The notes below the pieces were generated by a model. It worked only from the letters and a program-made list of their open reading frames with translations. It ran no database searches and had not been told where the DNA came from. A DNA stretch of 64,000 bases, taken from the NCBI GenBank assembly GCA_030390025.1, contig CM059428.1, positions 43,400,001 through 43,464,000 on the forward strand. The letters are read 5' to 3'. The stretch comes from Squalus acanthias. Lineage: Eukaryota. Each line of letters starts with the position of its first letter. The first letter of the stretch is position 1. Below, piece after piece: positions 1,521 to 62,681 of this stretch. Both the position numbers and the translations under genes were made by a program.

Positions 1521-1557
1521 TCTGGCAAGGACAGCATTTATTGCCCATCCCTAACTG

Positions 1558-2175
1558 CCATCTTCAGCTGCTTCATCAATGACCTTCCCTCCAACATAAG
1601 GTCAGAAGTGGGGATGTTCGCTGATGACTGCACAGTGTACAGTGCCATTCACAACTCCTCAGATAATGAAGCAATTCATGCCTGCATGCAACATGACCTA
1701 GACGACGTTCAGGCTTTGGCTGATAAGTGGCAGGTAACATTCGCACCACGGAAGTGCCAGGCAATGACTATCTCCAAGAAGCGAGAATCTAACCACCGCC
1801 CCTTGACATTCAATGGCATTACCATCGCTGAATCCCCCACCATCAACATCCTGGGGGTCACCATTGACCAGAAACTTAACTGGTCCAGCCACATAAATAC
1901 TGTGACAACAAGAGCAGGTCAGAGGCTAGGTATTCTGCGGCATGTGTCTCACCTCCTGACTCCCCAAAGCCTTTCTACCATCTACAAGGAGTGTGATGGA
2001 ATACTCTCCACTTGCCTGGATGAGTGCAGCTCCAACAACACTCACGAAGCTCGACACCATCCAGGACAAACAGCCCACTTGATTGGCACCCCATCCACCA
2101 CCTTAAACAGTCACTCCCTCCACCACCGGCGTACCGTGGCTGCAGTGTGTACCATCTACAAGATGCACTGCAAAT
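1558..2175 (+). mobile_element. LINE (CR1/L2-clade) RT C-terminal fragment
   Basis: ORF 1608..2180 contains MFADD, WQVTFAPRKC, LGVTIDQKLNW. Confidence 0.88.
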
Positions 2176-4029
2176 ACTGATTAAAAAATATCATCCTTAA
2201 ATTCCTTTCAGAATAATGGAACCACAAAGCCTCATAATGCTCTTTTAGTCTATATTTAAAATACTCTTTCAGATTTATTCTTCTACCCTTATAAAACCTA
2301 GTATTCCTTCATGGCACGATCGGGCATTTTCAGAGTAGTAGGGTAGGCATCTGCTGATTGGCTTTCCCTTTACCTAAAGGCTTGCAGTCCTGTCGACTAG
2401 CTTATGTTTCCTTTAATATTCCTTTCCCCCCTTCCCCACCTTGCTCTCTTGATCCTCAGGCTTCCCCACACACACAAACTACAAGCCCTACCCTTCATTG
2501 CCTTCCCCTTGCCTCAACCTTAAAAACTCCATTAGCTCCACTCTTCCTTACCTCGCTCACCCACTCACTCACTGCTGTAAAAACGCTGCTCCTTCCTGCC
2601 TCAAAATACACACAATTAGGGAGCAGCTTTAACTCCTCTCCCAAGCCCGGCTGCTTAAAACAGGCTCAAGCCCACAACCCAATTCAAGCCGCCTTTGCCC
2701 AATTCAGACCAGAACAAGATGTGGGCCTTTCTGTAAATTGATAAAAACAGACCGCATGGTCTCAATTTGGCCAGCAGGCCGACCCAGCAGCAGAACGTGC
2801 TGCAAAGGAAAGAGAGTGAGAGAGCGAGAGGGAAAGAGGGAGGGAGCGCGCACAAGCAATCAGCTAAAAAGGTTTCCAAATGAAGGCGGTGTCAGTGCTG
2901 CACCAAAGCATCAGCCGAATTTTTTGTGCTCAAGTCTCTGGAGAGGGACTTGGAACCCACAACCTTCTGACCCAGACACAAGAGTGCTACCCACTGAGCC
3001 ACGGCCAACCCTGTATGTGAGGGGCACTACAGAAATGCAGGTTGTTGTTGTCCAAGTGCCTATTCTTTTTGTGCAGCAAGTGTCGGTAAACTATTCGACT
3101 GCGGGGTAAGCCCAACGCTACCCTTATCGGGCATCTGCACGCACTGCAGGAGGGATCAGGAATGGGAATCTCGGATGTTTCTCTTTTGCTCCGATTGCCC
3201 AGGAAGCTGAGGTCAGTTGTATCCATTCCTGTTGACTGTTTCAGCAAGGACCTCGAAACCATCAACCCTGGGGGCTTCTTTAATTTGCACAGCTCAGCGC
3301 TACAAAAAGTGCTTGGAGACTGAGGCACTGGGGAGGTCCTGTGTCCAGCACATGTTAGATAGTGGAGAGCTGGAAGTAATTACATGGCAGTAAACTCATA
3401 GAGGGGTTCAGTTGATGTCATAAACTCCCAGAGAGAAGCTTGAGTGGTGTATAACTCTGAGATGACATTGCAGCCTTCAAATCGTTCCTATGTACCAGTA
3501 TGTTTTGTGATATTTGAACTGCAGACTTCAAGGGGGTGCTTTTATTTCTTTGAGCGTCCACTTCTTTGCCAACAGATGAAAACACTGATGTACCCTCCAC
3601 GCTGCATTGCTGAGAGTTTCTTCCCTGAAGAATTAACCACTGCAAGTACTGAGTGAGAATCAACAATCGGTATACGTATATATTACATTTCAAAGGCCAG
3701 TGGGTTATACAAAATCCAAGAAAAGCAACAAACACCAAAGGCGGGGTTTACGATGATCGTGATACAAATGTCTTGTGTTGTGCAATCTGCTGCTCCCTGG
3801 CATGCATTCCATTTCTATCTCATGTTTCACCGCTTTCAAATAATTTTGCTTCCTTTTTTTTGCGATTCTCATACAGACTCTACTTCATCTCATTCTTAAG
3901 AATAAAGACAGCCCCACAAGTTTAATTGAGTTTACAAGTGGTCTCACTCTTTTTGATCCTGAGCTTACTAAAAGTCATGTGACATGTTTCTTGTAAATGT
4001 AACACTTACTTCTCCGGACATTTTCCTGT

Positions 4030-4350
4030 CACTTTCGGATGAGACATTAAACCGAGGTCCCGTCTGCTCTCTCAAATGGACGGAAAAGATCCCACGGCAC
4101 TATTTCGAAGAAGAGCAGGGGAGTTATCCCCGGTAATATTTGGCCAATATTTATCCCTCAACCAACATCACTAAAAAACAGATGATCTGGTCATTATCAC
4201 ATTGCTGTTTGTGGGAGCTTGCTGTGTGCAAATTGGCTGCCGCGTTTCCTACATTACAACAGTGACTACATTTCAAAAGTATTTCATTGGCTGTAAAGTG
4301 CTTTGGGACGTCAGGTGGTCGTGAAAGACACTGTAGAAATGTGAGTGTTT
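4030..4350 (+). mobile_element. Deu-domain SINE (SacSINE1-like), 5'-truncated
   Basis: tttcggatgagacattaaaccgagg...aaaagatcccacggcactatttcgaagaagagcagggg core, repeated many times in the window. Confidence 0.75.
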
Positions 4351-5063
4351 TTCTATTTTTTCCATTTCTGCCCTGTCTGTAATGATTTTCTGTCACAGTT
4401 AAACTTGCTTTTTTAAAATCATATTTTTCTCTTTCCCGCTGACAGGCTGGCTGATTCTTGCCATGTGTCTCACTCCCAAAGTCGTCCTCTGAACTGAGTC
4501 ACTCAGGTCCGTTCGGAAGTTGCTCTCTCCCTCCCAGGAAGTTGTATTTTTTTAATTGTTTTTCTGCTGCCTGACTGGCACCTCCTACCACCTCTCCCCC
4601 AACCCCAAAATCCACCTGGTCCCTAATGCTGCTTCCTGGCACCTCCTCCCAACACTAACCGTCAACTCCTCCCTCTCTCTCCGACTCCAACTGCCGTCTC
4701 GCCTGATTGCTTCGTCCTTCACATTTCTCCATCCCAAAGTGTTGCCTCTTCGCCCTCTTCCTACATCGCTGACCAACACTGGCTCCCGGTTAAGCAACGC
4801 TTCAATTTCAAAATTCTCATCCTTGTTTTCAAATTCCTCCAGGGCCTCGCCCCTCCCTATCTCTGTAATCTCCTCTAGCCCCACAATCACTCAAGATATC
4901 TGCGCTCCTCTAATTCTGCTCTCTTGAGCATTCCTGATTATAACTGCTCCACCATTGGTGGCCGTGCCTTCTGTTGCCTAGGTCCTAAGCTCTGGAATTC
5001 CCCCCCAAAACCTCCCTGCCCCTCTACCTCTCTTTCCTCCTTTAAGACGCTTCTTAAAGAGAG

Positions 5064-5535
5064 TGTCAGCTGTGGCTCAGTGGGCAGCACATTCACCTCT
5101 GAGTCAGAAGGTTGTGGGTTTAAGTCCCACTCCAGGGACTTGAGCACATAAATCTAGGCTGATGTTCCAGTGCAGTGCTGAGGGAGTGCTGCACTGTTGG
5201 AGGTGCTGTCTTTTGCGTGAGACGTTAAACTGAAGTCCCGTCGGCTTTCTCCTGTGGATGTAAAAGATCCCATGGCACTATTTTGAAGAAGGTTGCGGAG
5301 TTCTCCCTGATGTCCTGGGCAAATATCTATCCCTCGACCAGCATCACTTTAAAAAAAAACAGATTATCTGTTCATTTTCACATTGCTGTTTGTGGGAGCT
5401 TGCTGTGCGCAAACTGGCGACCGTTTTCCCCACATTGCCACAGTGACTCCACTTCAAAAAGTACTTCATTGGCTGTAAAGTGCTTTGGGACGTCTGGTGG
5501 TTGTGAAAGGCGCTGTCGAAATGCAAGTCTTTCTT
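5064..5535 (+). mobile_element. tRNA-derived Deu-domain SINE (SacSINE1-like), near full length
   Basis: tRNA head (gtggctcagtggg A-box; gggtttaagtccc B-box) followed by the Deu core gctgagggagtgctgcactgttggaggtgc. Confidence 0.8.
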
Positions 5536-5758
5536 TAAAACCTACCTCTTTGATCAAGCTTTTGGTCACCTGCCCTAATTTCTCCTCATGTGGCTCGGTG
5601 TTAAATTTTTTGACTCATAACGCTCCTGTGAATCGCCTTGGGACGTTTTACAACGTTTAAGGCGGTGTATAAATGCAAGTTGTTTTTTTTCTCTTTTTTT
5701 TCTTGAAAAAAATACAAACCGGAGCGTCCCAGCGTCATCAAGAGCGGATTCAGTGGCT

Positions 5759-5834
5759 ATGCAAATTGTTGCTTCCGTGCGATGTCTGGGGCCTTCCCAG
5801 CGGTCAGCCTTTCGCAGGCAAAATCTATAAAAGA
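5759..5834 (+). promoter_or_regulatory. Candidate promoter of B7-like gene A: octamer ATGCAAAT (5759-5766) plus TATAAAAG (5827-5834)
   Basis: Perfect octamer ~60 bp upstream of a perfect TATA box, ~200 bp before the leader ATG. Motif-based call only. Confidence 0.45.
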
Positions 5835-6035
5835 GAGCGGGCTGCGGGCGCCGTCCCATAGAGAGAGCGGAGCCCCGAGGGTTCAGATATCGGTCATCGA
5901 GCTCTGTCCCGGGTGCCGCCGGAACCCTCCTTAAGATGCGGGTCTTTAGCAGCTGTGGAAACCGATAAAGAAACGATTTTCACTGATCGTCGTCTTGTCT
6001 TGTTTCGTTTTGACAGCTGTCGAGGAGAGCAAAGT

Positions 6036-6090
6036 ATGGTGAGAAGTCTGCTCGCTGTTTTGGTGGCTGTTCAATTCAGTTTGGCTCGAG
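6036..6090 (+). CDS. cd276-like: B7/CD276-like gene A, signal-peptide exon (MVRSLLAVLVAVQFSLAR)
   Basis: tttgacAG acceptor (exon from 6017), ATG at 6036, hydrophobic leader, phase-1 donor G|GTAAGT. Homologous exons at 37478 and 60364. Confidence 0.85.
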
Positions 6091-6211
6091 GTAAGTCTTT
6101 AAATGTAACTGTTTCCTTGCACACATTAGAATGAACGATCCACACAGTTTGAGGTGGTCTTTTCACCACTGAGAAATGGCCCAAAGCAATAACAGTACTT
6201 TCACTTGTAAT

Positions 6212-6336
6212 AGCAAAATACTGCGGATGCTGCAAATCTGAAATAATAACAGAAAATGCTGGAAATACTCAGCAGGTCAGGCAGCATCTGTGGAGAGAAA
6301 AACAAGAGTTAACGTTTCAGGTCTGGGACGGAAGGG
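6212..6336 (-). mobile_element. Short Penelope-like terminal fragment with 13-bp TSD
   Basis: TSD tttcacttgtaat at 6199-6211 and 6337-6349. The empty site is seen in gene C at ~60527. Confidence 0.8.
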
Positions 6337-6445
6337 TTTCACTTGTAATGTTGGGTCAGTTTAATGGGCAAGATGGATAATTCCCAAGTAAACATTGTTC
6401 ATGGAGCTGAAAATAATATTTCAAAGAAATAGCCCCTGTCTATTT

Positions 6446-6686
6446 ACATAAGAACAGAAGAAATGGGAGCAGGAATAGGCCACTTGGCCCCTCGAGCCTC
6501 CTTCGCCATTCAATAAGATCATGGCTGATCTTGGGCTCAAAGCCACTTCCCTGCCCGCTCCCCATATCCCTTCACTCCCTTATCGTGTAAAAATCTGTCT
6601 ATCTCCACCTTAAATGTATTTAATGACCCAGCCTCCACGGCTCTCTGGAGCAGAGAATTCCACAGATTTACGACCCTCTGAAGAAA
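6446..6686 (-). mobile_element. CR1 3' tail truncated at the duplication breakpoint
   Basis: Near-identical to 37888-38128; encodes QRVVNLWNSL on the - strand. Confidence 0.88.
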
Positions 6687-7479
6687 CACGGTAGAAAAAG
6701 TTAGGGCTGGTGCATTCATGTGTAAGTGAATTTTTAATGGCATGATAAGTCCACGCTGAAAATTATCTCCAAGTACTGTAAGTTGCTGCTCAAAAGCCTG
6801 CACAAAGCCTGTGGGGCAGCTGTAAGCGTAATGATGGTCGAGCGCTGCTCCTTCACCACTGACTACAAAATCCGGGCCATTATTGCAAGTAACTCTTGCA
6901 ATTTCAATAACTTGTTAGTAACTTTTGCAACCTTCTGCACTTTAAAGGCTGGGTTCATCTGATAGGAGGAAAAAGTACTGCACAAGAACAAATACAAACC
7001 AGAATGCCCTGGTTTACCAGCGCGGTAAACATGTTTGTTTTGCAATGGTTAATGCTGGGAAGTTTGCTTGGTGCTGAGCATGAATTCAAGACCTGTATTA
7101 GTAATATAGCTGATAGTATTTTGCTGTCGAGGTCTGACAAATGTCTCCCATTGATGCTGTGCATTTTCCAAATTGCAAAAGTGAGGCATGATCTTTCTGC
7201 AAGATTACCCTGAAATTCCTGGGACAGGGAGAGGGCAGAAAGCCTGATTTTTCTACCCTTGGCCAGAAATTTGGGGCAGAACCTACACATTGGAATTCTG
7301 CCCTGTTTACACTGGCCAATTAAATTCTGCAAAGGCGGACGGATGTTCCACTCTAACACTTGCTTTGATGGAGTGGATACCGCAGGAATTTCTGGCCCAT
7401 GGGTATTTTTTTAATGTGATGGATTGAAATATATTATTTCTCTATGAAAAGAGTAGTTAATCCATCTGCAATTTTACAG

Positions 7480-7818
7480 ATCAACAACAAGTAAGTGTTT
7501 GGGAAGAAGCCGTACTCGCCATCCATGGTCAAAATACAGTCCTGCCGTGTCACTTCCTCGTTGGTGACTCCTTAGACCAGATCATCATCATCTGGCAACG
7601 TGTCGAGACCAAAGAGGTGATCTTCCGTTCCAACAGCAGCAAAGATCGGCAGAGTCGGCAGTATTCGGGGAGAGCGAGCCTTTTCCCAGAGGAGTTTAAA
7701 TTGGGAAATGCTTCCCTAAAATTAGAAGGAGTCAGACCAAAGGATGCTGGGCAGTACATGTGCTTTATCAGCACTCCAATAGAAAATAGTACAGGAATCA
7801 TGTCTCTAAATTTTGCTG
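7480..7818 (+). CDS. cd276-like: B7/CD276-like gene A, IgV exon
   Basis: AG|...G|GTATGT, 339 nt, phase 1-1. DQQQVSVWEEAVLAIHGQNTVLPCHF...IIIWQRVET...YSGRASLFPEEFKLGNASLKLEGVRPKDAGQYMCFIS...SLNFA, with canonical V-set C, W and DxGxYxC. Confidence 0.93.
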
Positions 7819-8853
7819 GTATGTTTTCATTTGCATCTTGACTTTTTTTTTTCTTCCAGTGTTGTAGATTAAAATGTTGTTTAATGTATGATTTCAGTAT
7901 AAGTCCTTTTCACGCAATTGAAATCAGTTGCTATTTTTGAGTGTTTGTTTTTATTAAATCAATAGTGTAGCGGAGCAACCTTAAACAAGGCGATGCCTTC
8001 GAGCCTGCTCTGCCCTTCAATAAGATCATGGCTGATCTTCTACTTCTACTCCACTTTCCCGCACTATCCCCATATCCTTTGATTTCCTTAGTATCCAAAA
8101 ATCTATTGATCTGTTGAATATACTCAACGACTGAGCATCCACGACTGAGTGTGTGTATATATAGATTTTTAGACAATAGTATTAAAAACACTGGAAACAA
8201 CCTCCAGGTTCCATCCAACAAGCTGACTCATTTAAGTACAGACACGTGGCACTTGTATGCTTACTATGATTGACGTATCATTGTAAGATAAGGCAGAAGC
8301 TAAATCTTGGGTTTTTTAAGTATTGAAAAGCCACTGGACACATGGACCTACTAATTCGATTAGCTGGAGTAGTTGCTATATTCTTACTATATACAGAGCT
8401 GGGAGTATCTGGTTTGATTTTAGCTAGTTTGTTCCCAGGTTACCTGACCTTAACCAGGGCAACACTTCATTTGGCCTCTGCCCATGAACTAGGAAGAGAA
8501 AACTCTGGTAGGGTTCCTGCTTTTGATTGCTAGCCATTGATCCCTGCTGGAAGCTACGTGAAGTAGCTGTCCTGAGAGGACAGGATTGGGCTCTGATGTA
8601 ATGGTCAATTTGCCTGCAAACATTCCATCTAAGATGACATGGGAAGAATGACCACTTGTGTGATGTACTGGAGGACTGCTGGTGTTTGTGGAACCATGCT
8701 CTGGCATGCGTTACTGCCTTTAGGAGAAAATTGTTGCTTTTCAATTTCCTCACCCCCCACCCCCCAAAATGGTAGCAGGAATTAAAACCTTAGATGGTAT
8801 TTGATGAATTTTATTTCCTTTGTCTATTGACTACTTTTTTAAAAATTCCTCAG

Positions 8854-9138
8854 CGTACTACACAGAACCCAGCCTAATAATCAAACGAACACCAGATGGA
8901 ACAGCTTTCGCCTTTGAATCCCAAGGTTTCCCCAAAGCTACTGTTTTCTGGTACAATGAAAAACACCAGGATATTTCTGCCCTGTCTGAGACCTTGTGCC
9001 AACTTCATGAAGATGGACTGTATTCACTGCGGAGTATTCTGCAAACCAATGATACCAGTAGAAGTTCAAACTACACATTTAGATTAAGGAATGATGTTCT
9101 GCAGCAGTCCTTTTCCTGGACATTTAGTCTTCCTTTGG
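8854..9138 (+). CDS. cd276-like: B7/CD276-like gene A, IgC (B7 C-set) exon
   Basis: cctcAG|...G|GTAAGT, 285 nt. AYYTEPSL...AFESQGFPKATVFW...GLYSLRSIL...NYTFRLRNDVLQQ resembles B7-H3 APYSKP...QGYPEAEVFW...YSCLVRNPVLQQ. Confidence 0.92.
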
Positions 9139-10288
9139 GTAAGTTAATTGATTTGGATCCTATGCAGTGAATCTTTTCCCCAAATAGGAGAAGGCCTAGA
9201 TATTAACTATCTGGCAGCTGACATGAGGGGGGTTGTGATCATGGGAAGCAGGGTGGAGAGGTAGTGACAGTGGCCCACATCATTCTTGTGGAGCCGGGAG
9301 AAGTGCTCCTTCACCTGGCCACACAAATAATTTACCTTTTTTGGGCTGCTTCTGTACCACCGAGTTTTACTGAGCAGACACTCTGCCAAGGTGGCAGTTC
9401 AAAATGTTTTTTATTCATTCATGGGATGTGGGCATCGCTGGCATTTATTGGCCATCCCTAATTGCCCTTGATGAGCCACCTTCTTGGCAATTGAGTGGCT
9501 TGCTAGGCCATTTCAGAGGGCAGTTAAGAGTCAACCACATTGCTGTGGGTCTGGAGTATAGGCCAAACCAGGTAAGGACGGCAGATATCCTTCCCTGAAG
9601 GACATTAGTGAACCAGATGGGTTTTTATGACAATCTGGTAGCTTCATTGTCACCAGTACTGATACTAGCTCTTTATTCCAGATTTATTTAATTAACTGAA
9701 TTTAAATTCCCCAGCTGCCGTGAGTGAGATTTGAACTCATGTCTCTGGATCATTAGTCCAGGCCTCTGGATTACTGGTCCAGTAACAACCACAATGCTAC
9801 CTTTCCTGCAGTAAACAGTCGGGTAAATTACTTAAAATGTATAAACAGATTTAAAAAGCCAGTGAGAATGTACTTCACAGGACCCCGATTTGCATAGGCT
9901 AATGAGGCGTGCACCTGATTCAGGTGGTTGCCTGGGGCACCCAGCAGAAGGCCCCAGCAAAATGCCAGTGGATTGAGAATGGGGCAGTGAGCACACCACC
10001 TCCATTTTAACTCTGCTCCAGAGCAGAGGGGGGCTAAATCCTCCCCGAAATGTGTTCCACTGCTAACCTCCCATTTGATGTACAAATTGAGTTCTAGCTT
10101 AGTGTCACAAAGTATATTTGATCCTTTTCAGCCACATCTGTAACTTCTAATTTAGTACCAGCTTATTCAATGTCACATTTTATGCATCATATAATTAGCA
10201 TTTTTGAAGTCAAATTGTTCATTTAAAATGTATTGTCAAAGAAATTCAAACTAGCACTGAAAGCATTGCTGTAACTTTTATTTTACAG

Positions 10289-13140: not shown

Positions 13141-15390
13141 CCTCTTCCAACTCCTATCTTCTATGTTTCTATGACCTCTTCCAACTAGAAGGACAAGGGC
13201 AGCAGGCGCATGGGAACACCACCACCTCCAAGTTCCCCGCCAAGTCACACAGCATCCTGACTTGGAAATATATCGGCCGTTCCTGCATCGTCGCTGGGTC
13301 AAAACCCTGGAACTCCCTCCCTAACAGCACTGTGGGAGTACTTTCACCACACAGACTGCAGCGGTTCAAGCAGACGGCTCACCACCAGCTTCTCCAGGGC
13401 AATTAGGGATGGGCAATAAATGCTGGCCTTGCCCGTGATGCCCACATCTCATGAATGAATAAAAAACAAAATGCCAGTGATGCAGCTTGATTTCTCTCCC
13501 TCCATGTGGGGAAGTGTCTCGTGGTGGGTTTTAAACTCCAGATAACTAGTTAGAGTTGGAAAACACTGAAATTAATCTTGGTTTCAACGCAATGCCAGGA
13601 GAAGGAGGAGTTTGTATGCCAGCGAATTTGCAGTTAATGAGGAACAAGAGAGGTGAGTTCAAGGAAGTGCTGAGCAGAGCAGTATTGATAAAATAGAAGC
13701 GAGAAAGACTGCAGTAAAAAGAAAGGTTGGACACTATAGGTGAGAGGCAGTTACAATTTTGTTGGATGTGAGATAGTTAATTTGCATATTAATACCTTTG
13801 TCTACATGCATGTGTATATATAAAATCATAATTAGATTACAGGCCAAAGTAACTAACTTAGAAGAGGGTAGATGGGGAAAATAATGGCTAGCTTGACTGA
13901 AGAAGAAACATTCTATCACGATATACACATAGCTAAACAATAGTGTCTTGAAAGGGTAGTGTAGGATCACGAGGTTATAATGGTTTGAGAATTACAAGAC
14001 ACAGATGAATGTGGGGTTAGGGATCTGCTGAACCATAGAAATCAGACAGAGAAGGGGCCTACATGCAGAACCAAAGTTCTTGAAATAGCTTATCTGCTGT
14101 GGAAATTTATAAAAAGGAAGGACTGGGTCAGGTCAGGTGACATGAGAGACCCTATGGAGAGGGAAAGGAACATTGAGTGAAGGGTCCAAGGGAATGTCGT
14201 AGATTTGAATTGAAAGTCATGGTATAAGAAGGGGACCCCAGCAAAGGTTAAGGGTAGAAGATTTGAGTCAAATTTGGGGAGACACTTGGAGGTGGATACG
14301 GGCCTGGGCACAAGCCAGTGGGTGCAGACAACTCTTACTGTGACTTTTACCCAAGGCATAACTGGGTAGTATAACTATTCATTATACCTTGTAACAACAT
14401 GAGCAGAGCGCATTGAGTCCCAGCACTGCAAACTACATGAGGGGTATTTGTATGTCTTCAATGGGCCTTCTGCTTGTGAGCATTTAGACCTATATCACTT
14501 ACTTGTAGTCTAAGTGCCCGGCAAATATCAACAAACATCTGTCATTGTGTCACTGACTCATGGGTCCTTGAATCTGTTAAATACGGTTTATACAGCAACT
14601 CCCATTGTACCATCCAATTGTTTTAAGCGATTCTAGGAGATTTTACCTCCACTTTCTCTGGAAGTTTATTCCACATGTTGATCACAATGAAGATGAGTTT
14701 CCTGATACCTGTCCTAAAACTACCTTTTACTAGGCTGAACCTGTGTCCTCTAGATCTACTTCGGCAACTTAATTTAAAGTCACATTCTGGGTTAACTTTT
14801 TCTATACTTGTAGCAATATCTATATGCCTCTGAGATCATCTTTCAGCTGCCTCTTTCTAGGTGGGGAAAAAACCCAGGGGTAAAAATTCACTTGGTTGCG
14901 CCTCCCGTTAGCGCCTTAAGAGGGCGCTAATGGGGCGTTAAGCCGCTAACGCCCGGGCGCAGCGCTGTTTGCGCCGCTCGGGAACTTAACTTGAGATTCT
15001 GCGGCGGCGCTAAAACTTACCGCTGCGACCACCTGCGCGCGCAGATTGTGACGTCATTCCATGGTGCAACGCCCTTGGGGCGCCCCGGAGCAGAAATTGA
15101 GTGGCGCCCCCTGCCTTACCGCCTGGCGCTTCCAACGACCGGAAGACTGGAACGTTATCAATCGGTGTGGGGCTGGGGGGGGCGCTATTTAAAGGGGGCC
15201 TCTTCCTGTCTTTTTCTGTGGTCGACATTTATGCACCACTCGTTCTGAGAGAGAGAGAGAGAGATTCGGAGAGAGAGAGAGAGAGACTTCTACATTGACT
15301 CAACGCTTTGTGAGGTAGTTTTGCCTAGTTCATCCTAACTTTGTTGCTACTTTAGTTGCTGTACCTCATTACTTTTCTGGCAAAGAGAAT

Positions 15391-16551
15391 ATGGGGGCTG
15401 CAATGATTGGGGGCGTCGTCCTGCTCCAGCTGAATCGGAGGATAGTGAGACGCAGACAGAGAGTGGCAATGATGGCCAGACGGAGGAGGGCCATCAGGCG
15501 CATGTACAGGAGAGCTTACCCTCCCAGGGTATATCGTGAACAGCTCTCCTACATCCATATGTCCGAGGAGCTGTGTTTGCGAAGGCTGCGATTCAGCAAG
15601 GAGGTGGTCACTGAGCTCTGCCACCTGCTGCAGCCAGATCTGCAGCCTCAGCTGAGGTCCAGGACGTCTCTGTCGGTGGCAGTGAAGGTCACAGTGGCTT
15701 TGAACTTCTACGCCACTGGCTCATTCCAAGCTGCTGTTGGGGACCTCGCCAATATCTCCCAGTTTGCGGTGCATCGCTGCATCCGGCAGGTCACCAATGC
15801 CCTCTTCAGAAGGAGACGAGACTTCATCTCTTTCCCTATGACCCCAGACAAGCAGCGTGACCGTGCTCTGGGCTTTGCGAGGGTAGCGGGCTTCCCCATG
15901 GTGCAGGGCGCCATTGACTGCACGCATGTGGCTTTGCGTGCTCCGCGAGAGAATGCAGAGGAATTCAGGAACAGAAAGGGGTTCCATTCCTTGAATGTGC
16001 AGTTGGTCTGTGACCACAGACAGGTGATACTCGCTGTCAATGCCCACTATCCGGGCAGCTGCCACGATGCTTTCATCCTGCGCCAGACTACTGTGGCAGA
16101 AGTTTTCGAGGCACCGCATCAGCCAGTTGGTTGGCTTCTGGGGGACAAGGGGTACGCATTGAGCACCTGGCTGATGACACCGCTCCGTACGCCAAACACC
16201 CCTGCTGAGCTGCGGTACAATGAAAGCCATCAAGCAACCAGGAACATTATTGAGCGCACAATCGGCGTGCTGAAACAACGGTTCCGCTGTCTGGACCATT
16301 CCGGAGGAGCCCTGCAGTACTCGCCTGAGCAAGTTTCGAACTTCGTAGTCGTGTGCTGCATGTTGCACAACATGGCAATCCTCAGGACCCAGCCAATGCC
16401 ACCAGGCCTTGTAGCACCACCAGAGGAGGAGGAGGAAGAGGAGGAAGAGGACAAGGACGATGATCATCAGCAGCACCAAGGCAGGAGGGCGGCCCACAAT
16501 GGTCAAACTGCAAGGGCCGTCCGTCAACGACTAATAGCAAGCCGCTTCTAG
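15391..16551 (+). CDS. Harbinger transposase (HARBI1-like DDE_Tnp_4), intact, 386 aa
   Basis: GAIDCTHV, NRKGFHSLNVQLVCD, GSCHDAFIL, WLLGDKGY, RNIIERTIGVLKQRFRCL, CCMLHN; N-terminal HTH (ISQFAVHRCIRQV). Confidence 0.95.
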   Translation: MGAAMIGGVVLLQLNRRIVRRRQRVAMMARRRRAIRRMYRRAYPPRVYREQLSYIHMSEELCLRRLRFSKEVVTELCHLLQPDLQPQLRSRTSLSVAVKVTVALNFYATGSFQAAVGDLANISQFAVHRCIRQVTNALFRRRRDFISFPMTPDKQRDRALGFARVAGFPMVQGAIDCTHVALRAPRENAEEFRNRKGFHSLNVQLVCDHRQVILAVNAHYPGSCHDAFILRQTTVAEVFEAPHQPVGWLLGDKGYALSTWLMTPLRTPNTPAELRYNESHQATRNIIERTIGVLKQRFRCLDHSGGALQYSPEQVSNFVVVCCMLHNMAILRTQPMPPGLVAPPEEEEEEEEEDKDDDHQQHQGRRAAHNGQTARAVRQRLIASRF

Positions 16552-16845
16552 GGCCCCTGCCATTGCTACAAACACTAATCAACCCAGCACGCAACCCCTA
16601 AGCCGGCCAAGGCACCAATAATTCCAACCACCAGCCATGTATATTTTGAATACAGAAACTTATTTATTTTACAAACTCTGTGTGTGTCAATTCCTCATGA
16701 CAAACTCATAGAAATAAACACAAAAAAACAGTCAATAACATAACTGGTTCTCACAACCTGGAGATAATGTCCAAAACACTAAACAAAAGTTGGACCATGA
16801 ACCTCGGCCTTTAATAAAAAAATGACCAGCATTTTGGCACACCTC

Positions 16846-18776
16846 CTACTTTTTGCCCTTCGAGGGTGATCTCCTTCCCTTGCGCACTTCCCCCCTTCTA
16901 ACCCTACTGCTCCTCCGTAATGGGACCTCAGTGGCTGCAGCAAGGCTGGTGGAAGGCTGCTGCTCGTCAGACCCTGACACTGCAGATGCCCCTGAAGGAC
17001 GGCCTCGACCACTTCTGGGCCTGGAGGGCCCGGCTGCAGACTGCACCAACTCTGCATGGGCGGCAGCAGTCTGTCCTACAGGCGGTGGCAAGTGCAGTGG
17101 AGAAGTGACAGTGTTGGCAGCAGGAATGCTGTCATCGTGAGAGAGGACAGCAACTCCCTGCTCGCCCGACACACTGGCACTCCCACGGGGCAGCACTTCA
17201 GCATCCGGAGCAATTTGCCGGAGAGCAGATTGCTGGCCTGCTGCGGCGCGGTGACAGCCCCGGGGACATGTGCACGAACCATCGAGGATGGCAGCAGTCA
17301 GTGCTCGCGTGGCCTCAATCTGAGTCTGCATGAGAGCAGTCTCAGATGGGTTCCTGGCAGCCAGTGACTGAATTGCAGCACTAAGCTTTAGTGTGGCATC
17401 CGCCTGTGCTACAGCGAAGTGCTCCACACTCCTTGCCAGTGATTCAATGCATTCGGGCACCCTTCCCACTGCACCCATGAGCTCAGTGTGCATGCCCACC
17501 GCCTGGCTGTTCATTTCTGCAATCAGCCGCTCCTCCTCTGCGTCCATTGCAGTAGGAGTGTCTGGCATACTCTCCCTCTGGGGAGAAGGCCCCCGTTCTT
17601 CCCTACCCCCCCCATGGCGTTGCTGCAGCCCGCTGGGTCCTGGAGCTTCACCATCATCAGCCCCTTCCCCCCTGCTCCCCTCCGGGGAAGGCGTGTTCCC
17701 AGTGTGGGCATGGGCTTCCTCGGGAGAGGGTGGCACTGATGCTCCGGCTTCCTCTTCCTCCTCAGCTGCAGCATCACTCCCAGTGGCAGCTTCAGGGCCC
17801 GTCTCCTCAGCTGGTGAATCACCATCTGAAAGCAGGGAGGTACAAGAGTGGCTTTAGCGTGAGGACAGGGTGGCAGTAAGGGAGGAATAAGTGCAGCGAG
17901 TTAGCAAGTTGGATTGAAAGTGTCAAAGGCTGGTATTGTGAGGGACAAGTGGAAGGACAGAGGACAAAAAGGTGATGACCTTACCATTGCTGTCCACAAC
18001 GGGGTCGGCGTCTCCAGTGGCGACGGGACCGATCACCCGGCTTGCCACAATCCTGTGGACGCGCTCCTCCAGATCGCTGAGGGGTTGCAGCTGAAGCCGC
18101 CCTCCACCCGTCCGTTGCTGCTGTCTCCGATTATGAGCCAGCTTAGCCTGCAAGAAAAAGGACAGCATCTGAGTAAATATACAGCCATGGTCTTGCCTGA
18201 TGTGCCTCCCATAGGTGAATAGCCCTTACTATATGCAGCCATGGTCTTGCCTGATGTGCCTCCCATAGGTGAATAGCCCTTACTGTATGCAGCCATGGTC
18301 TTGCCTGATGTGCCTCCCATAGGTGAATAGCCCTTACTGTAGGCAGCCATGGTCTTGCCTGATGTGCCTCCCATAGGTGAATAGCCCTTACTGTATGCAA
18401 AGTGTGGAATGTGTGTGTGTGTTTGATGAAAGGGCCATAGGTGTTGGATGAGTGTTGTGCATTGGGGTTTTAAGACCCTCTGGCCATAGAGTGAGGTTGA
18501 GATGGAGGGATGGAGAGGTATTGAGAAAAAGCCACTCACCCTGACGACCCGAGTGAGGTCGTTGAACTTTTTGCGGCATTGAACATGGGTCCTGGGCACC
18601 ATGCTCCTGGAGGAGACACTCTGAGCCACCTCCCTCCACACTCTTCTGAACTCGCGTGGCAAAGGCCTCCTGCCACTCTCCGGGAACAGCATGCATCGTC
18701 TGCGCTCCACTGCGTCAACCAGAGCATCCAAGGCCCGCTCGGTGAAGCGATGAGCGCGTTCTCTCACCCTCTCCAT
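16846..18776 (-). CDS. Harbinger Myb/SANT-like DNA-binding protein (NAIF1/MSANTD-like), 3 exons: 18776-18540, 18147-17985, 17825-16846; 459 aa
   Basis: RFTERALDALVDAV...W..VA..V....RTHVQCRKKFNDL|AKLAHNRRQQQRTGGG. Both introns are GT-AG with matching phases (0 and 1). Basic C-terminal NLS-like tail. Confidence 0.88.
18182..18397. repeat. 54-bp minisatellite, 4 copies, in intron 1 of the Myb gene
   Basis: Unit cagccatggtcttgcctgatgtgcctcccataggtgaatagcccttactgtatg starts at 18182, 18236, 18290 and 18344. Confidence 0.97.
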
Positions 18777-19881
18777 GCTTGGCAGCAAAATGGATTACAG
18801 GTCTCTCCAGGCTGAGATTCAAGGCTGCAATGAGCAGGGTGTGGCTGGGGAGCAAGTGGCCCCCCCCGCTTTAAGAAGTGTCCGGCGCCATTGTGTCTGT
18901 GTTCCCTCGTTAACTGGCAGCAGTTGCGCTGCGCTCGTGCGCTGAGTTAGCGCCTCACTCCTTGGCCTTTGCGCCTTAAGAGAGGTGTGCAGCGCCTAAT
19001 TTAGCGCTCCACTCACCTCCCGGGGCGGTAAAAGTGAAGTTTCCTGTCAGTGCCGATAATTAGAGCCAGGCGCTAATATTTGCGTCCGGACGATATTTGC
19101 GCCCCAAATGGGGCGCGACCTAATTTCTACCCCCCAGTCTTTCCCCTCAGTTCAGAGCCCTGACACCTGAGAATCAGTCTTGTGGCTCTTCTCTGCACCA
19201 CCTTCAGCATTTGGCTGTCTCTTGCTTCTGGGTGACCAGAATGGGATGCAGTATTCAAGGTTTGGGTGAACAAAGGCACGATAAATTTTGATCGCTCCTC
19301 CCTCTTCATTATATTCTACCATTTTTGGGCTGTATAATTCAACATTGGGTCAGCTTTGCTGCTAACCGCTCTGCCTTGGTTGGCCATATTTATCGTAGAG
19401 TCTAGCAAGACTCCATGTTCTCTTTCAGTTTCATTCTTAGCAATTTCAACACCATTCATGCAGTATACATGTTGTCTATCTTTCCTTCCTGTGTGTAGCA
19501 TTTGTCTGCATTATGTTTCTTCTGCCATTGTTCTGCCCACTTGCATATGTTGTCCATCTCACCCTGTAATTTCTAAGCTGCCTCTTCCAAATCCACTGCT
19601 TCTCCTAGTTTGGTATCACCCATAAATCTGACCACTTTGCATCGAGTTTCTGAATCCAGGTCATTTACGTAAATTGGAAATAATAGTGCTCCTAGCACCA
19701 ACCCTGAGGCACCCGACACAGTACTCCCCTCCAATCTGACCCAGCTCCTCTGATGAACAATTACTGTTTCCTATCCTTCAGCCAGTTACTTCTCCATTCC
19801 CAAAGTTTACCCTGAACCCCCTCAGCCTTGAGTTTAATGATCAAAAGCCTTTTGAGGTGTCGGCAGGGCTTAACACAGTTC

Positions 19882-21249: not shown

Positions 21250-24200
21250 CAGGTCTTAATTTTGTGGTTATAGTTTCTAAGGTCTCTGTTGTGTAGCGGG
21301 GAGTGCTAGTAAACAAGGGCCCTTGATTATAACATTTAATTGTAGTGTAATTGGTGGTATTGATTTGATTTAATTTAATTTAAATTAATTAAAGGGTAAG
21401 TCATGGAAGCACAGCTCGGCCCCGTGGTATGCTCCTCCTGTGCTATGTGGGAAATCAGGGACACTTCCTGTGTCCCTGACGACCATGTGTGCAGGAAGTG
21501 TATCCAGCTGCAGCTACTGGCAGACCGCATTGCATACTGGAGCATTCGCGATGCTGAGGACGTCGTGGATATCACGTTTAATGAGTTGGTCACACCGCAG
21601 GTAAAGGCTGCACAGGCAGGAAGGGAATGGGTGACCGCCAGGCAGAGTAGTAGGCACAGGCAGGTAGTGCAGGGGTCCCCTGTGGCCATCCCCATCTCAA
21701 ACAGATATACCACTTTGGATATTGTTGAGGGGGATGGCTTATCGAGGGAAGGCAGCAGCAACCAACTTCCTGGCACCATGAGTGGTTCTGCTGCACAGGA
21801 GGGGAGGAAAAAGAGCGGGAGAGCTATAGTGATTCTATTGTAAGGGGAATAGATAGGCGTTTCTGCAGCCGCAAACGAGACTCCAGGATGGTAGGTTGCC
21901 TCCCTGGTGCAAAGGTCAAGGATGTCTCGGAGCGGCTGCAGGGCATTCTGGAGGGGGAGGGTGAACAGCCAGTTGTCGTGGTGCATTTAGGTACCAATGA
22001 TATAGGTAAAAAACGTGATGAGGTCTTAAACGCTGAATATAGGGAGTTAGGAGGTAAATTAAAAAATAGGACCTCAAAGGTAGTAATCTCAGGATTGCTA
22101 CCAGTGCCATGTACTAGTCAGAGTAGAAATAGAAGGATATTTCCGATGAATACGTGGCTAGAAGAATGGTGCAAGGGGGAGGGATTCAAATTCCTGGGAC
22201 TTTGGAACCGGTTCTGGGGGAGGTGGGACCAGTACAAACTGGACGGTTTGCACCTGGGCAGAACCGGGACCGATGTCCTAGGGGAAGTGTTTGCTAGTGC
22301 TGTTGGGGAGGGTTTAAACTAAAAAGCAGGGGGTTGGGAACCTGTGCAGGGAGACAGAGGAAAGGGAATCAAGGATAGAAACAAAAGACAGGAAGGAGAA
22401 AAGCAAAAGTGGAAGGCAGAGAAATCAAGGGTGTAAATCAAACATGGCCACAGTAAACAGTAATTCTAAATGGTCTAAGAGTGTTAAAAAAAACAAGCCT
22501 GAAGGCTCTGTGTCTTAATGCGAGGAGCATTCGTAATAAGGTGGATGAATTAGCTGTGCAAATAGATGTAAACGGATATGATATAATTGGGATTACAGAG
22601 ACATGGCTCCAGGGTGACCAAGGCTGGGAATTCAACATCCAGGGGTATTCAATATTCAGGAAGGACAGGCAAAAAGGAAAAGGAGGTGGGGTAGCATTGC
22701 TGGTTAAAGAGGAGATTAACACAATAGTAAGGAAGGATATTAGCTCTGATAATGTGGAATCTGTATGGGTAGAGCTGAAAAATACCATGGGGCAGAAATG
22801 TTAGTGGGAGTTGTATACAGGCCCCCCAACAGTAATGCTAAGGTTGGGGATAGCATTAAATGGGAAATTAGAGATGCGTGCAATAAGGGTACAGCAGTTA
22901 TCATGGGTGACTTTAATCTGCATATTGATTGGGCTAATCAAATTAGTAACAATACTGTGGAGGAGGAATTCTTAGCGTGCATACGAGATGGTTTCCTGGA
23001 CCAATATGTCGAGGAACCAACTAGAGATCAGGCCATCTTAGACTGGGTATTATGTAATGAGAAAGGATTAATTAGCAATCTTGTTGTGCGAGGCCCTTTG
23101 GGGAGGAGCGATCATAATATGATAGAATTCTTCATTAAGATGGAGAGTGAAGTAGTTGACTCAGAGACTAGGGTCCTGAATTTAAATAAAGGAAACTATG
23201 ATGGCATGAGGCGCGAGTTGGCTAGGGTGGATTGGGGAATGTTACTTAAAGGGTTGACAGTGGATTGGCAATGGCAAACATTTAAAGATCACATGGATGA
23301 ACTACAGAATTTGTTCATCCCTGTTTGGCATAAAAATAAAACAAAAAAGGTGACTCAACCGTGGCTAACAAGGGAAATTAGGGATAGCATAAGATCCAAG
23401 GGGAGGACATACACATTGGCCTGAAAAAGCAGCAAACCTGAGGATTGGGAGCAGTTTAGGATTCAGCAAAGGAGGACAAAGGGATTAATTAAGAGGGGGA
23501 AAATAGAGTATGAGAGTAAGCTTTCAGGGAACATAAAAACTGACTGTAAAAGCTTCTATAGATATGTGAAGAGAAAATGATTGGTGAAGTCAAGCGTAGG
23601 TCCCTTGCAGTCAGAATCAGGGGAATTTATAATGGGGAACAAAGAAATGGCAGACCAATTAAATACATACTTTGGTTCTGTCTTCACAAAGGAGGACACA
23701 AATAACCTCCCAGAGATGTCGGGGAACATAGGGTCTAATGAAAGGGAGGAACTGAATGAAATCAGTATTTGTAGGGAAATGGTGTTCGGGAAATTGACGA
23801 GATTGAAGGCCGATAAATCCCCAGGGCCTGATAATCTACATTCTAGGGTACTTAAGGAAGTGGCCCTAGAAATAGTAGATGCATTGCTGGTCATCTTCCA
23901 AAATTCTATAGACTCTGGAACAGTTCCCATGGATTGGAGAGTAGCTAATGTTACCCCACTATTTAAAAAAGGTGGGAGAGAGAAAACGCGGAATTATAGA
24001 CTGGTAAGCCTGACATTGGTAGTGGGAAAAATGCTAGAGTCCATTGTAAAAGATGTAATAGCAGAGCACTTGGAAAACAGTGACAGGATCGGACAAAGTC
24101 AACATGGATTTACAAAAGGTAAATCATGCTTGACTAATCTACTGGAATTTTTTGAGGATGTAACTGGTAGAATAGATAAGGGAGAACCAGTGGATGTGGT

Positions 24201-25397
24201 GTATTTGGACTTTCAGAAGGCTTTCGATAAGGTCCCGCATAAGAGATTAGCGTGCAAAGTTAAAGCACATGGGATTGGGGGTAAGGTACTGACTTGGATA
24301 GAAAACTGGTTGGCAGACAGGAAGCAAAGAGTTGGAATAAACGGGTCTTTTTCCGAGTGGCAGGCAGTGACTAGTGGGGTACCGCAGGGATCGGTGCTAG
24401 GACCCCAGTTATTCACAATATATATAAATGATCTAGACGAGGGAACTAGATGTAATATCTCCAAGTTTGCAGACGACACAAAGCTGGGTGGGCGTGTGTG
24501 CTGTGAGGAGGATGCAGAGAAACTCCAGTATGATTTGGACAGGTTGGGTGATTGGGCAGATGCATAGCAGATGCAGTATAATGTGGATAAATGCAAGGTT
24601 ATCCACTTTGGTGGCAAAAACAGGAAGGCAGATTATTATCTGAATGGCAATAGATTGGGAAAAGGGGAAGTGTAACGAGACCTGGATGTCCTTGTGCATC
24701 AGTCGCTGAAGGTAAGCATGCAGGTGCAGCAGGCGGTTAAGAAGGCAAATGGTATGTTGACCTTCATAGAGAGAGGATTCAAGTACAGGAGCAAGGATGT
24801 CTTGCTGCAGTTGTACAGGGCCTTGGTGAGACCACACCTTGAGTATTGTGTGCAGTTTTGGTCACCTTATCTGAGGAAGGATGTTCTTGCCATGGAGGGA
24901 GTGCAGCGAAGATTCACCAGACTGATACCTGGGATGGCAGGAATGACGTATGAAGAGAGATTGGGTCCATTGGACTTGTATTCGCTAGAGTTTAGAAGAA
25001 TGAGAGGGGATCTCATTGAAACTTATAAAATTCTAACAGGACTAGACAGACTAGATGCAGGAAGGATGTTCCCGATGGCGGGGGAGTCCAGAACCAGGGG
25101 TCACACTCTAAAGATAAGGGGTAAGCCATTTAGGACTGCGATGAGGAGGAATTTCTTCACCCAGAGAGTGGTGAACCTGTGGAATTCTCTAGCACAGAAG
25201 ACAGTTGAGTCCAATTCATTAAATATATTCAAGAAGGAGTTAGATATATTTCTTAAGGCTGAGGGGATCAAGGGATATGGGGAGAAAGCAGGGACAGGGT
25301 ACTGAATTTGGATGATCAGCCATGATCGCATTGAATGGCGGAGCAGGCTCGAGGGGCCGAATGGCCTACTCCTGCTCCTATCTTCTATGTTTCTATG
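21250..25397 (+). mobile_element. Near full-length CR1 LINE (ORF1 zinc finger/esterase; ORF2 APE-RT), disabled by stops and frameshifts
   Basis: ORFs 21403..21843 (CSSC..CRKC), 21888..22322, 22481..23424 (APE), 23581..24567 (RT, KFADDTK), 24694..25305; tail tctatgtttctatg. Confidence 0.95.
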
Positions 25398-31077: not shown

Positions 31078-33010
31078 AATCTGTTTTTTCGCTAGTTTGT
31101 GCTCATAATCCATTTTCCCTTTCTTTATCAATTTCTTGGTCCCCCTTTGCTGATTTCTAAAAAGATCCCAATCCTCAGGCTGACTGCTTTTTCTGGCAAC
31201 TTTATAAGCTTCCTCCTTTGACTTAATACTAGCTTTAATTTCTTTTGTTAGCCATGGTTGGATCACTTTTCCTTTTGGGTTTTTATGCCTGAGAGGAATA
31301 TATGTTTGTTGCAAATTATGCATTATTTTCTTGAATGTTAGCCATTGTATGTCCACCTTCATACCTTTTAGTGTAGTCTCCCAATCTACCATGGCCAACT
31401 TGTCCCTCATACCCTTGTAGTTTCCTCTGTTTAGATTGACGACCTTAGTTTCAGATTAGACTACATCACTCTCAAAATTAATGTAAAATTCAATCATATT
31501 ATGGTCACTTGTCCCGAAAGGCCCCTTTACCACAAGATTATTGATTAGCCCTTTCTCATTACACAGTACCAGATCCAGAATAGCCTGTTCCCTGGTTGGT
31601 TCCTCTACATACTGATCCAGGAAACCATCTCGCATGTATTCCAAGAATTCGTCCCCCACACCATTAGTGGTAATTTGATTTGCCCAGTCCATATGTAGAT
31701 TAAAGTCCCCCATGATTACCGTATTGCCCTTGTTACATGCACTTCTAATTTCTGGATCGATACTGTGCCCTACATTACCACTACTGTTTGGTGGCCTATA
31801 CACAACTCCCACCAATGTTTTCCGCTCTTTGCTGTTTCTTAGCTCCACCCAAACTGAATCCAGTTCTACATCACGATCTGCCGAGCCAAGATCTTTTATC
31901 TCTACCGTACCGATCTCATCCCTTATTAACAGCGCTATGCCACCTCCTTTTCCTTTTTGTCTGTCCTTCCTAAATGTTGAGTACCCTGGAACATTCAGTT
32001 CCCAGCTTTGGTTACCCTGCAGCCATGTCTCTGTAATGGCAATGACATCATATCCATTTACTTCTATTAGTGTCATTAATTTCATCCACCTTGTTGCGAA
32101 TGCTACGTGCATTTAGATAAAGTGCCTTCAACTTTGCCTGTTTAATATTTTTCTGCACTTTGACCCTCTTTACTATTGGCCTTTGTTTCTGCTCCCTACT
32201 AGTTTTGCTGACTACTTTTCTAACTTGCACTTCCAGCTTTGTTTCTCTCCATTCTGGGCCCACACTTAGGTTCCCAGCCCCCTGACAAACTAGTTTAAAT
32301 CATTCCCAACAGCACTAGCAAACCCCCCTGCGAGGATATTGGTCCCGGTTCTGCCGAGGTGTAACCCGTCCAGCTTGTACAAGTCCCGCCTTCCCCAGAA
32401 TCAGTCCCAATGCCTCAGGAATTTAAATCACTCCCTCCCACACCATCTCTCCAGCATGCATTCATCTGGTCTATTCTCCTATTTCTGCTCTCGCTAGCAC
32501 GTGGCCCTGGGAGTAATCCTGAGATTACTACCTTTGAGGTCCTGCTTTTTAATTTATTTCCTAGCTCCCTATATTCTGCTTGCAGGACCTCATCCCTCTT
32601 TCTACCTATGTCGTTGGTACCGATATGGACCATGACCTCTGGCTGTTCACCATCCCCCTTCAGAATGTCCTGCAGGCGCTCAGTGACATCCTTGACCCTG
32701 GCACCAGGGAGACAACATACCATCCTGGAGTCACATCTGCGGCCACAGAAACGTCTATCTGTTCCCCTTACAATAGAATCCCCTATCACTATTGCTCTCC
32801 CACTCTTTTCCTCCCCTCCTGTGCAGCTGAGCCACTCGTAGTGCCACCGACTTGGCTCTTCTGCATTCCCCTGAGAAACCATCTCCCCCAGCAGTATCCA
32901 AAACGGAAAATCTGTTGGAGAGGGAGATGGACCCAGGGGACTCCTGCACTACTTTCCTACTTCTTTTACTCAGTCTGGCAAGGACAGCATTTATTGCCCA
33001 TCCCTAACTG

Positions 33011-33628
33011 CCATCTTCAGCTGCTTCATCAATGACCTTCCCTCCAACATAAGGTCAGAAGTGGGGATGTTCGCTGATGACTGCACAGTGTACAGTGCCA
33101 TTCACAACTCCTCAGATAATGAAGCAATTCATGCCTGCATGCAACATGACCTAGACGACGTTCAGGCTTTGGCTGATAAGTGGCAGGTAACATTCGCACC
33201 ACGGAAGTGCCAGGCAATGACTATCTCCAAGAAGCGAGAATCTAACCACCGCCCCTTGACATTCAATGGCATTACCATCGCTGAATCCCCCACCATCAAC
33301 ATCCTGGGGGTCACCATTGACCAGAAACTTAACTGGTCCAGCCACATAAATACTGTGACAACAAGAGCAGGTCAGAGGCTAGGTATTCTGCGGCATGTGT
33401 CTCACCTCCTGACTCCCCAAAGCCTTTCTACCATCTACAAGGAGTGTGATGGAATACTCTCCACTTGCCTGGATGAGTGCAGCTCCAACAACACTCAAGA
33501 AGCTCGACACCATCCAGGACAAACAGCCCGCTTGATTGGCACCCCATCCACCACCTTAAACAGTCACTCCCTCCACCACCGGCGTACCGTGGCTGCAGTG
33601 TGTACCATCTACAAGATGCACTGCAAAT
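33011..33628 (+). mobile_element. LINE RT C-terminal fragment (3' half of the element starting at ~27005)
   Basis: ORF 33061..33633 contains MFADD. Confidence 0.88.
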
Positions 33629-36975: not shown

Positions 36976-37200
36976 TAAAACCTACCTCTTTGATCAAGCT
37001 TTTGGTCACCTGCCCTAATTTCTCCTCATGTGGCTCGGTGTCAAATTTTTTGACTCATAATGCTCCTGTGAATCGCCTTGGGACGTTTTACGATGTTTAA
37101 GGCGGTGTATAAATGCAAGTTGTTTTTTTTCTCGTTTTTTTTTCTTGAAAAAAATACAAACCGGAGCGTCCCAGCGTCATCCCGAGCGGATTCAGTGGCT

Positions 37201-62557: not shown

Positions 62558-62681
62558 ATCAACTCTTCAGGGAAGAGAGAAAATGCAGAAGCGGGGATAA
62601 TTGCTTTTTAGTGCTTTCCTGTGTTCAAGATTAAATCTCTTGGAACAATGCTGTTACTAATCTATTTGTTTTAATTCACAG

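Follow-up and report, generated by a model that had tools for sequence, protein, structure and literature searches.

The 64-kb window of the Squalus acanthias genome analysed here (64,000 nucleotides of contig CM059428.1, assembly GCA_030390025.1, forward-strand positions 43,400,001 to 43,464,000; coordinates below are those of the window) contains two copies of a PIF/Harbinger transposon, both lying within it. Copy 1 (14877-19133, 4257 bp) is, by its ends and gene content, a complete and well-formed two-gene Harbinger of the autonomous type, and a young one in sequence terms. Its transposase gene and Myb-like gene converge between 12 bp terminal inverted repeats (TIRs), left at 14877-14888 (plus strand) and right at 19122-19133 (minus strand), which match at 11 of 12 positions. 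The element is flanked by a CCA target-site duplication (TSD); the left target-site arm and TSD occupy 14868-14876, with CCA at 14874-14876, and the right TSD and arm occupy 19134-19142 (both plus strand). A TIR scan of the 64 kb gives exact pattern matches at the four termini of the two copies and nowhere else, no other Harbinger fragments or derivatives resembling miniature inverted-repeat elements were found in the window by tblastn, by blastn with both ends or by the TIR scan, and an Rfam scan of the window returned 0 matches.

Just inside each TIR is an array of TTAGCGCC-like motifs, counted with at most one mismatch on both strands. The left array (14908-15188) has eight and the right array (18947-19103) has seven; these are the counts for the terminal 320 bp, compared with none in the 3617-bp interior and 16 in the 55,347 bp outside the elements. 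We infer that the motif is a binding site for the Myb-like protein. There is also an internal 24 bp stretch (15087-15110) that is 79% complementary to the right terminus and resembles a second TIR-like end 210 bp inside the left end.

The transposase open reading frame (ORF; 15391-16551, plus strand) is preceded by a TATA-like motif at 15186-15193 (plus strand; a consensus match only) and encodes 386 amino acids with a DDE_Tnp_4 domain (Pfam E 2.6e-39) and the catalytic triad D176, D252 and E288. The protein keeps 117 of the 122 columns conserved among 23 homologs. Residue T233 is serine in 21 of the 23 homologs and in copy 2, and is likely a change private to copy 1. The predicted structure is confident, with a mean predicted local distance difference test (pLDDT) score of 82.9, and in structural comparison it comes closest to DDE transposases, the top match to this predicted model being piggyBac (Z 10.4, root-mean-square deviation 4.9, 230 residues aligned). 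A Foldseek search with the model gave nothing below E 0.001, its top rows being integrases and transposases; a PDB sequence search with the transposase alignment gave a single chance match (E 0.69), and no Harbinger transposase structure is among the PDB search results. Between the convergent genes (16552-16845) are polyadenylation-signal-like hexamers at 16713 and 16813 on the plus strand and at 16663 and 16810 on the minus strand.

The Myb-like gene is on the minus strand and is predicted to have three exons (18776-18540, 18147-17985 and 17825-16846) separated by GT-AG introns of 392 and 159 bp, with an open product of 459 amino acids. Exon 1 codes for a DNA-binding domain of the Myb/SANT-like type (Myb_DNA-bind_5, E 1.3e-9) and exon 2 a conserved extension C-terminal to it. 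Exon 3 encodes an acidic linker, a predicted long helical domain (approximately residues 224-316, pLDDT 76-95, the remainder of the model being of low confidence), a low-complexity region and a basic tail resembling a nuclear localisation signal. The first splice junction is spanned without gaps by database proteins P0007 and P0122, and both junctions are spanned collinearly by P0124 and P0128, so the predicted gene is more than a frame-fitting guess. Most database relatives have a helical domain about 33 residues longer than this one. Intron 1 contains a 54 bp minisatellite (18178-18399) with 4.1 units in copy 1 and 5.2 in copy 2 (54248-54526). We note that P0123, P0134, P0007 and P0131 are gene models in which a PML-like RING/B-box protein, an immunoglobulin (Ig) protein or the transposase is joined to Myb-like sequence of Harbinger; these are probably annotation fusions, and possibly exonisation. 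Modelled as a complex, the transposase (residues 1-386) and the helical region encoded by Myb exon 3 scored 0.00 in two runs without alignments, a result counted neither way. An earlier reading made from the letters alone (the sequence-only reading) had described TIRs and a TSD at 14877-19133, an open 386-residue transposase with a full DDE triad and an open spliced 459-residue Myb/SANT partner, and all of these stand.

Copy 2 (50865-55260, 4396 bp, plus strand) is also full length, and lies in the same orientation at an offset of 35,988 bp downstream. Its 12 bp TIRs likewise match at 11 positions, and its TSD is CCT, with the left arm and TSD at 50856-50864 and the right TSD and arm at 55261-55269 (both plus strand). 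The copies differ by 89 substitutions in 4255 aligned bases (2.1%), consisting of 50 transversions and 39 transitions, and by three indels that are all frame-preserving in the coding parts. The copy 2 transposase gene (51377-52537, plus strand) is interrupted by a stop at codon 280 (52214-52216), which lies before E288, and also carries N277Q; N277 and H280 are present in 23 of 23 homologs. As read from this gene, the copy 2 transposase is broken and the element non-autonomous, a point absent from the sequence-only reading. Its Myb-like gene (52832-54903, minus strand) is open and would encode 488 amino acids, with an 87 bp in-frame duplication in exon 3, so copy 2 could still supply Myb protein or be moved in trans. 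Five substitutions, including both stop-creating changes, fall within 21 bp at 52205-52225 and possibly represent one multi-base event. Among the substitutions between the copies, C-G transversions are frequent (17 of 89; three other duplicated pairs together have 6 of 118, P 0.003) and closely spaced pairs of changes are over-represented (9 against 3.6 expected); possible sources of both excesses are error-prone gap repair in the course of transposition and synonymous change that preserves GC.

The flanks of the two copies are unrelated over 150 bp (44 and 43 positions identical) and the four 1-kb flanks have no mutual blast match. The innermost 10 bp are similar, however (8 of 10 on the left, 7 of 10 on the right), because both copies sit in one target motif. 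The sequence-only reading had reported a similar copy about 36 kb away with the same orientation, a different TSD and different flanks, and had taken the two as independent insertions. The second copy and the independence of the insertions are confirmed by the differing TSDs and unrelated flanks, and the difference in flanks holds with the exception of the nearest 10 bp.

The motif with which the two sites are compared is AAACACCWGGTCTTT, the 15 bp palindrome described as the target of zebrafish Harbinger3_DR in PMC3016246, and it was taken from that source with no fitting to the present sites. With the elements excised, the empty sites match it at 12 of 15 positions for copy 1 and 11 of 15 for copy 2, scores reached at 4 and 27 of 55,327 background positions, the two sites themselves counted in; by simple arithmetic from this background, the chance of both reaching 11 of 15 is about 2e-7. 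Of the 12 arm positions, 11 and 10 agree with the motif, scores that 1 and 9 of the 55,327 positions equal on the same count. The two empty sites are identical to each other at 12 of 15 bases (5.6e-5 for random pairs), and 5 of 6 arm positions are palindromic in each. The centre of the target differs: CCA and CCT (CCW) mismatch the CWG of Harbinger3_DR, a point against the overall reading of the element. Registers were tried with the ends shifted by up to 3 bases and TSDs of 2-6 bp. In both copies the TIRs match best in the 3 bp register, a 5 bp reading is nearly equal at 10 of 12, and a CWG TSD is obtained only in a register with a 5 of 12 TIR match. We use the 3 bp CCW register because TIR symmetry and arm symmetry both select it. 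With two sites as the basis for inferring both target and TSD, the shark insertions appear to have in common a 15 bp palindromic target preference of the Harbinger3_DR type.

The mechanism that these parts suggest is as follows. The N-terminal domain of the Myb-like protein would bind the repeated subterminal motifs, and its C-terminal helical domain would hold the N-terminus of the transposase and import it into the nucleus, in keeping with descriptions of relatives in which the Myb domain binds the ends and the C-terminal part binds the transposase N-terminus and provides nuclear import (PMC7282668, PMC2836001, PMC9392472). The DDE transposase would then cut at the 12 bp TIRs and paste the element, with a 3 nt stagger, into an approximately 15 bp palindrome, AAAGAC-NNN-GTCTTT, for which the two sites provide the target and TSD. 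Both proteins are described as needed for transposition in Harbinger relatives (PMC9179366, PMC2836001), and are known here as predicted products.

The element has the features of PIF/Harbinger in the broad sense, namely a DDE_Tnp_4 transposase with the catalytic triad (in copy 1 only), a Myb/SANT gene within TIRs, and a 3 bp TSD. The TSDs CCA and CCT are not the TWA given as defining the narrow-sense group (PMC13668399). As in NuwaI, the TIR starts with GGG and falls in the 12-61 bp range, and there are two ORFs in about 4.5 kb, but neither TSD of the two sites is CWG. The NuwaII target is TNA preceded by C and followed by G; both shark sites have the flanking C and G, but the centre is not TNA on either strand. 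Because the narrow-sense, NuwaI and NuwaII TSDs all differ, the element is filed only under the broad superfamily. It nonetheless looks like a further PIF/Harbinger member related to Harbinger3_DR, and would work like the NuwaI / Harbinger3_DR family in spite of the TSD mismatch. Harbinger3_DR is NuwaI-2_DRer of Han et al. 2015, with 4204 bp, a 12 bp TIR, a CWG TSD and proteins of 343 and 221 amino acids (PMC4482050). The shark element is similar in length, has TIRs of the same length and encodes the same pair of domains, DDE_Tnp_4 and Myb_DNA-bind_5. The Harbinger3_DR transposase (PMC9179366 supplement) aligns to that of copy 1 without gaps and with 119 of 287 residues identical by hand count (about 41%), and the N-terminal region of its Myb protein is, by eye, collinear with the shark protein across junction 1. 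The differences are the TSD, the longer shark proteins (459 compared with 221 amino acids for Myb and 386 compared with 343 for the transposase) and the host, a shark and not zebrafish. Further likenesses to the NuwaI and NuwaII elements as described in PMC4482050 are the two ORFs, the G-rich TIR start, the length of about 4.2-4.7 kb, the C before and G after the 3 bp TSD and an ambiguity between 3 and 5 bp as in NuwaII. Their TSDs are CWG or TNA, neither of which occurs here, and the hosts given in the accessible part of that paper include bony fish, a turtle and an amphibian, but no cartilaginous fish.

Transposase homologs were sought among annotated proteins of 212-676 amino acids, and the best 120 of 381 matches are listed. 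The best 65 are all from sharks or rays, with a top identity of 66%, and nearly all close matches carry the database name 'putative nuclease HARBI1'. The nearest proteins among the matches listed are Pristiophorus japonicus paralogs with this name, 66% and 61% identical, which fall with both copies in a common supported clade of 11 rows in a tree that contained no Nuwa reference sequence. The full DDE triad is present in 54 of the 120 listed, among which the three best matches (P0001-P0003) are not included, and 22 of the 120 have the triad and a near-complete core. There is no sign of horizontal transfer, in that no protein exceeds 66% identity among the 381 matches (120 listed) to annotated proteins of this length range. 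We also note that the 'putative nuclease HARBI1' proteins from sharks and rays include five cross-species sets on short branches (P0004/P0005; P0011/P0012; P0022/P0025/P0067; P0039/P0040; P0008/P0015/P0019/P0021/P0023/P0030), in which 13 of 15 proteins are without the full DDE triad. By these features they look like several further domesticated, elasmobranch-specific Harbinger transposase genes.

Judged by a simulation that kept the type and CpG context of each change between the two copies and randomised its position, the cores of the two proteins (transposase residues 41-335 and Myb residues 1-135) contain 17 synonymous changes where 6.8 are expected (P 0.0003) and 13 nonsynonymous changes where 20.1 are expected (P 0.04); Myb residues 1-135 alone have five synonymous changes and no nonsynonymous ones. 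CpG-type changes are few, affecting 13 of 187 CpG sites, with the other 174 common to both copies, and the ratio of CpG to other changes is 3.7 compared with 9.8-14.9 in three other duplicated pairs. The yardstick for this CpG clock is a 6.7-kb duplication in the window (1-6686 and 31454-38128, 99.3% identity), which is either a recent segmental duplication or an uncollapsed haplotype; although only 0.5% diverged, this calibration pair has CpG-type changes at 9 of 164 CpG sites. If the whole 2.1% between the Harbinger copies were ordinary genomic decay, about 43 CpG-type changes would be expected (20-82, from a small calibration). The simplest reading is that most of the differences arose in transposing source lineages and that the copies inserted separately, probably from different source sublineages.

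Several observations weigh against this. The cores were picked after both proteins had been viewed; across all coding sequence the synonymous excess is weaker (P 0.038, ratio of nonsynonymous to synonymous rates 0.57), and for the entire Myb gene it is not significant (ratio 0.73, P 0.47). Noncoding DNA differs at 32 of 1716 bases (1.9%), a rate matching that of all nonsynonymous sites (1.9%), so what is seen is an excess of synonymous change and not a deficit relative to noncoding DNA. A 300 bp tract at the 3' end of the transposase gene holds 19 differences (P 0.002), which would allow a mosaic or partial-conversion history. The CpG clock takes methylation to be equal and has nine events as its basis, the CpG deficit is not significant at the lower bound (P 0.07), and the CpG share of substitutions (13 of 89 compared with 9 of 33) gives P 0.12. 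Finally, the comparison includes two copies only. Taking these points together with the rest, we consider it probable that the element is an autonomous-type, Harbinger3_DR-related PIF/Harbinger of a shark family that moved in recent evolutionary time, and that the copies are independent insertions from different source sublineages.

By the CpG clock, decay since insertion is 0.24% for copy 1 (0.13-0.53%), or about 5-20 substitutions, and about 0.39% for copy 2; five CpG-type changes on copy 1 cannot be polarised, so an age near zero is possible for it. The epaulette shark rate given in PMC10587355 is 7e-10 per base per generation with a tenfold interval, and at this rate, which is another species' and carries that interval, 0.12-0.47% corresponds to 1.7-6.7 million generations. 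The earlier description of the insertions as recent is overstated: they are young in sequence terms, but this can still amount to millions of shark generations. Imperfections in two subterminal motifs of copy 1, both perfect in copy 2, are, like T233, likely private changes of copy 1, none of them obviously fatal. Copy 1 has probably been in place long enough to acquire a few private changes and is still open, and it is young and possibly competent.

That the family is active now, with copy 1 as a competent master element, is the strong form of the sequence-only reading and is doubtful, being weakened by the dead second copy and by signs of some decay. Both ORFs, the splice sites, the TIRs and the TSD are intact, and CpG content is high, the observed/expected ratio being 0.56 inside the element and 0.40 outside, with most CpG sites common to both copies and an age for copy 1 that could be near zero. 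However, both genes would remain open by chance with probability 0.83, 0.68 and 0.43 after 10, 20 and 45 random substitutions, so intact ORFs are weak evidence of activity. Copy 2 is dead, the pair is 2.1% apart, and there is no short non-autonomous derivative within the 64 kb. In addition, the clock value for copy 1 exceeds the 0.1% per branch implied by the epaulette shark diversity of 0.002 (PMC10587355), which suggests a fixed insertion. Going further, and rather unlikely in our view, copy 1 would be natively competent without reconstruction and its family still moving, the arms of the approximately 15 bp palindrome having been kept since the shark/bony-fish split, with transposases only about 41% identical, while the centre changed from CWG to CCW.

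Harbinger3_DR is described as mobilised in the form of a reconstructed consensus, whereas in the shark a single genomic copy, copy 1, has both ORFs open. Han et al. report 88 PIF/Harbinger, 11 NuwaI and 22 NuwaII families as potentially active, with both ORFs intact, and these are described as derived from family consensus sequences (PMC4482050). Coelacanth LatiHarb1, with which we compare by description only, is a natural vertebrate Harbinger reported to make up 9.3% of the genome (PMC3787270), and a review describes ongoing accumulation of Harbinger in coelacanth (PMC5381603). In Naville 2014 (PMC4255032) the main text does not refer to Harbinger. An active animal Harbinger is reported as demonstrated in Caenorhabditis inopinata (PMC13668399). 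A 2022 study reports Harbinger expression in fish gonads and, in the text available, none in elephant shark, and its authors urged the examination of other species (PMC9179366).

A local hop or local duplication followed by neutral decay, or by partial ectopic gene conversion across 36 kb, is an improbable origin for the pair. The two copies do lie in the same orientation within 36 kb, in a region with tandem Ig genes and the 6.7-kb duplication, and the uneven divergence along the element fits patchy conversion. Proximity may merely reflect high copy number, though, and the longest identical run between the copies, 269 bp, is no longer than chance allows (P 0.23). Neutral decay from identical templates predicts neither the synonymous excess nor the CpG deficit, and the suggestion in the sequence-only reading of local hopping, as a direct parent-daughter event, is therefore not supported. 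Segmental duplication as the source of the second copy is excluded by the differing TSDs, the unrelated flanks and the divergence of the neighbouring genes. The two Harbinger copies are found downstream of different V-C exon pairs, at a distance of 6-10 kb, and the exons of those Ig units are only 70-75% identical; being far more diverged than the elements, they show that the copies were not made by gene-unit duplication. No empty paralogous site for either insertion was found within the window.

A domesticated host locus like HARBI1 or NAIF1 is very improbable, since although nearly all close matches are named 'putative nuclease HARBI1' and the copies bear a signal of purifying selection, HARBI1 and NAIF1, described as domesticated from the same two protein types (PMC9392472), are single-copy host genes without TIRs, whereas the shark element is present as two dispersed copies with TIRs and TSDs, of which one is broken, and groups with long-branch sawshark paralogs outside the short-branch sets, the nearest protein being 0.68 changes per column away. 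It is equally hard to credit that the second copy is an assembly artefact, a haplotype or mis-join; the 6.7-kb duplication in the same window and the excess of transversions over transitions might suggest it, but the TSDs and flanks differ, and the enrichment of differences at synonymous sites and the three frame-preserving indels are unlike sequencing error.

The window as a whole consists of three CD276/B7-like Ig gene units in a tandem cluster, packed with fragments of long interspersed nuclear elements (LINEs). The units, each with V and probable C exons, are at 7461-9145, 39765-40977 and 62675-63920; the second and third share 93% DNA identity and differ in frame structure where the V exon begins. 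A CD276-like protein of Heptranchias perlo is 82% identical to the neighbouring V-set exon, and the figures for Heterodontus and Pristiophorus are 79% and 77%. Together with the transposase matches, this points to a shark host and, weakly, to a squalomorph. The second unit is flanked by the two Harbinger copies, which, being in direct orientation, could promote unequal recombination. A near full-length LINE is present at 21386-25397, with an esterase-type ORF1 and with endonuclease and reverse transcriptase pieces split over several ORFs. We take this LINE to be CR1-like.

Little has been written on Harbinger elements of cartilaginous fish. In the text available, the papers on the whale shark and grey reef shark genomes do no more than list the Harbinger superfamily, and no description of a full-length elasmobranch Harbinger or its target was found in the openly accessible literature, although Repbase or Dfam may hold a consensus. 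The present window adds an element that is complete, together with its gene models, the motifs at its ends and its target sites. Copy 1 is a cheap candidate for an assay and not evidence for an active vertebrate Harbinger. The proposal in the sequence-only reading that the family could be used as a tool is a sensible one chiefly on account of the long target site, which that reading did not mention, as sequence-selective integration is what would make such an element useful for gene delivery to few, predictable sites. Were copy 1 natively competent, it would be a ready-made sequence-selective integrase, and comparison with Harbinger3_DR would map the residues that read the arms and those that read the centre. 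Of most interest is the long target site, which is a real addition; common to a shark element and to zebrafish Harbinger3_DR, it suggests that sequence-selective integration is old in this lineage.

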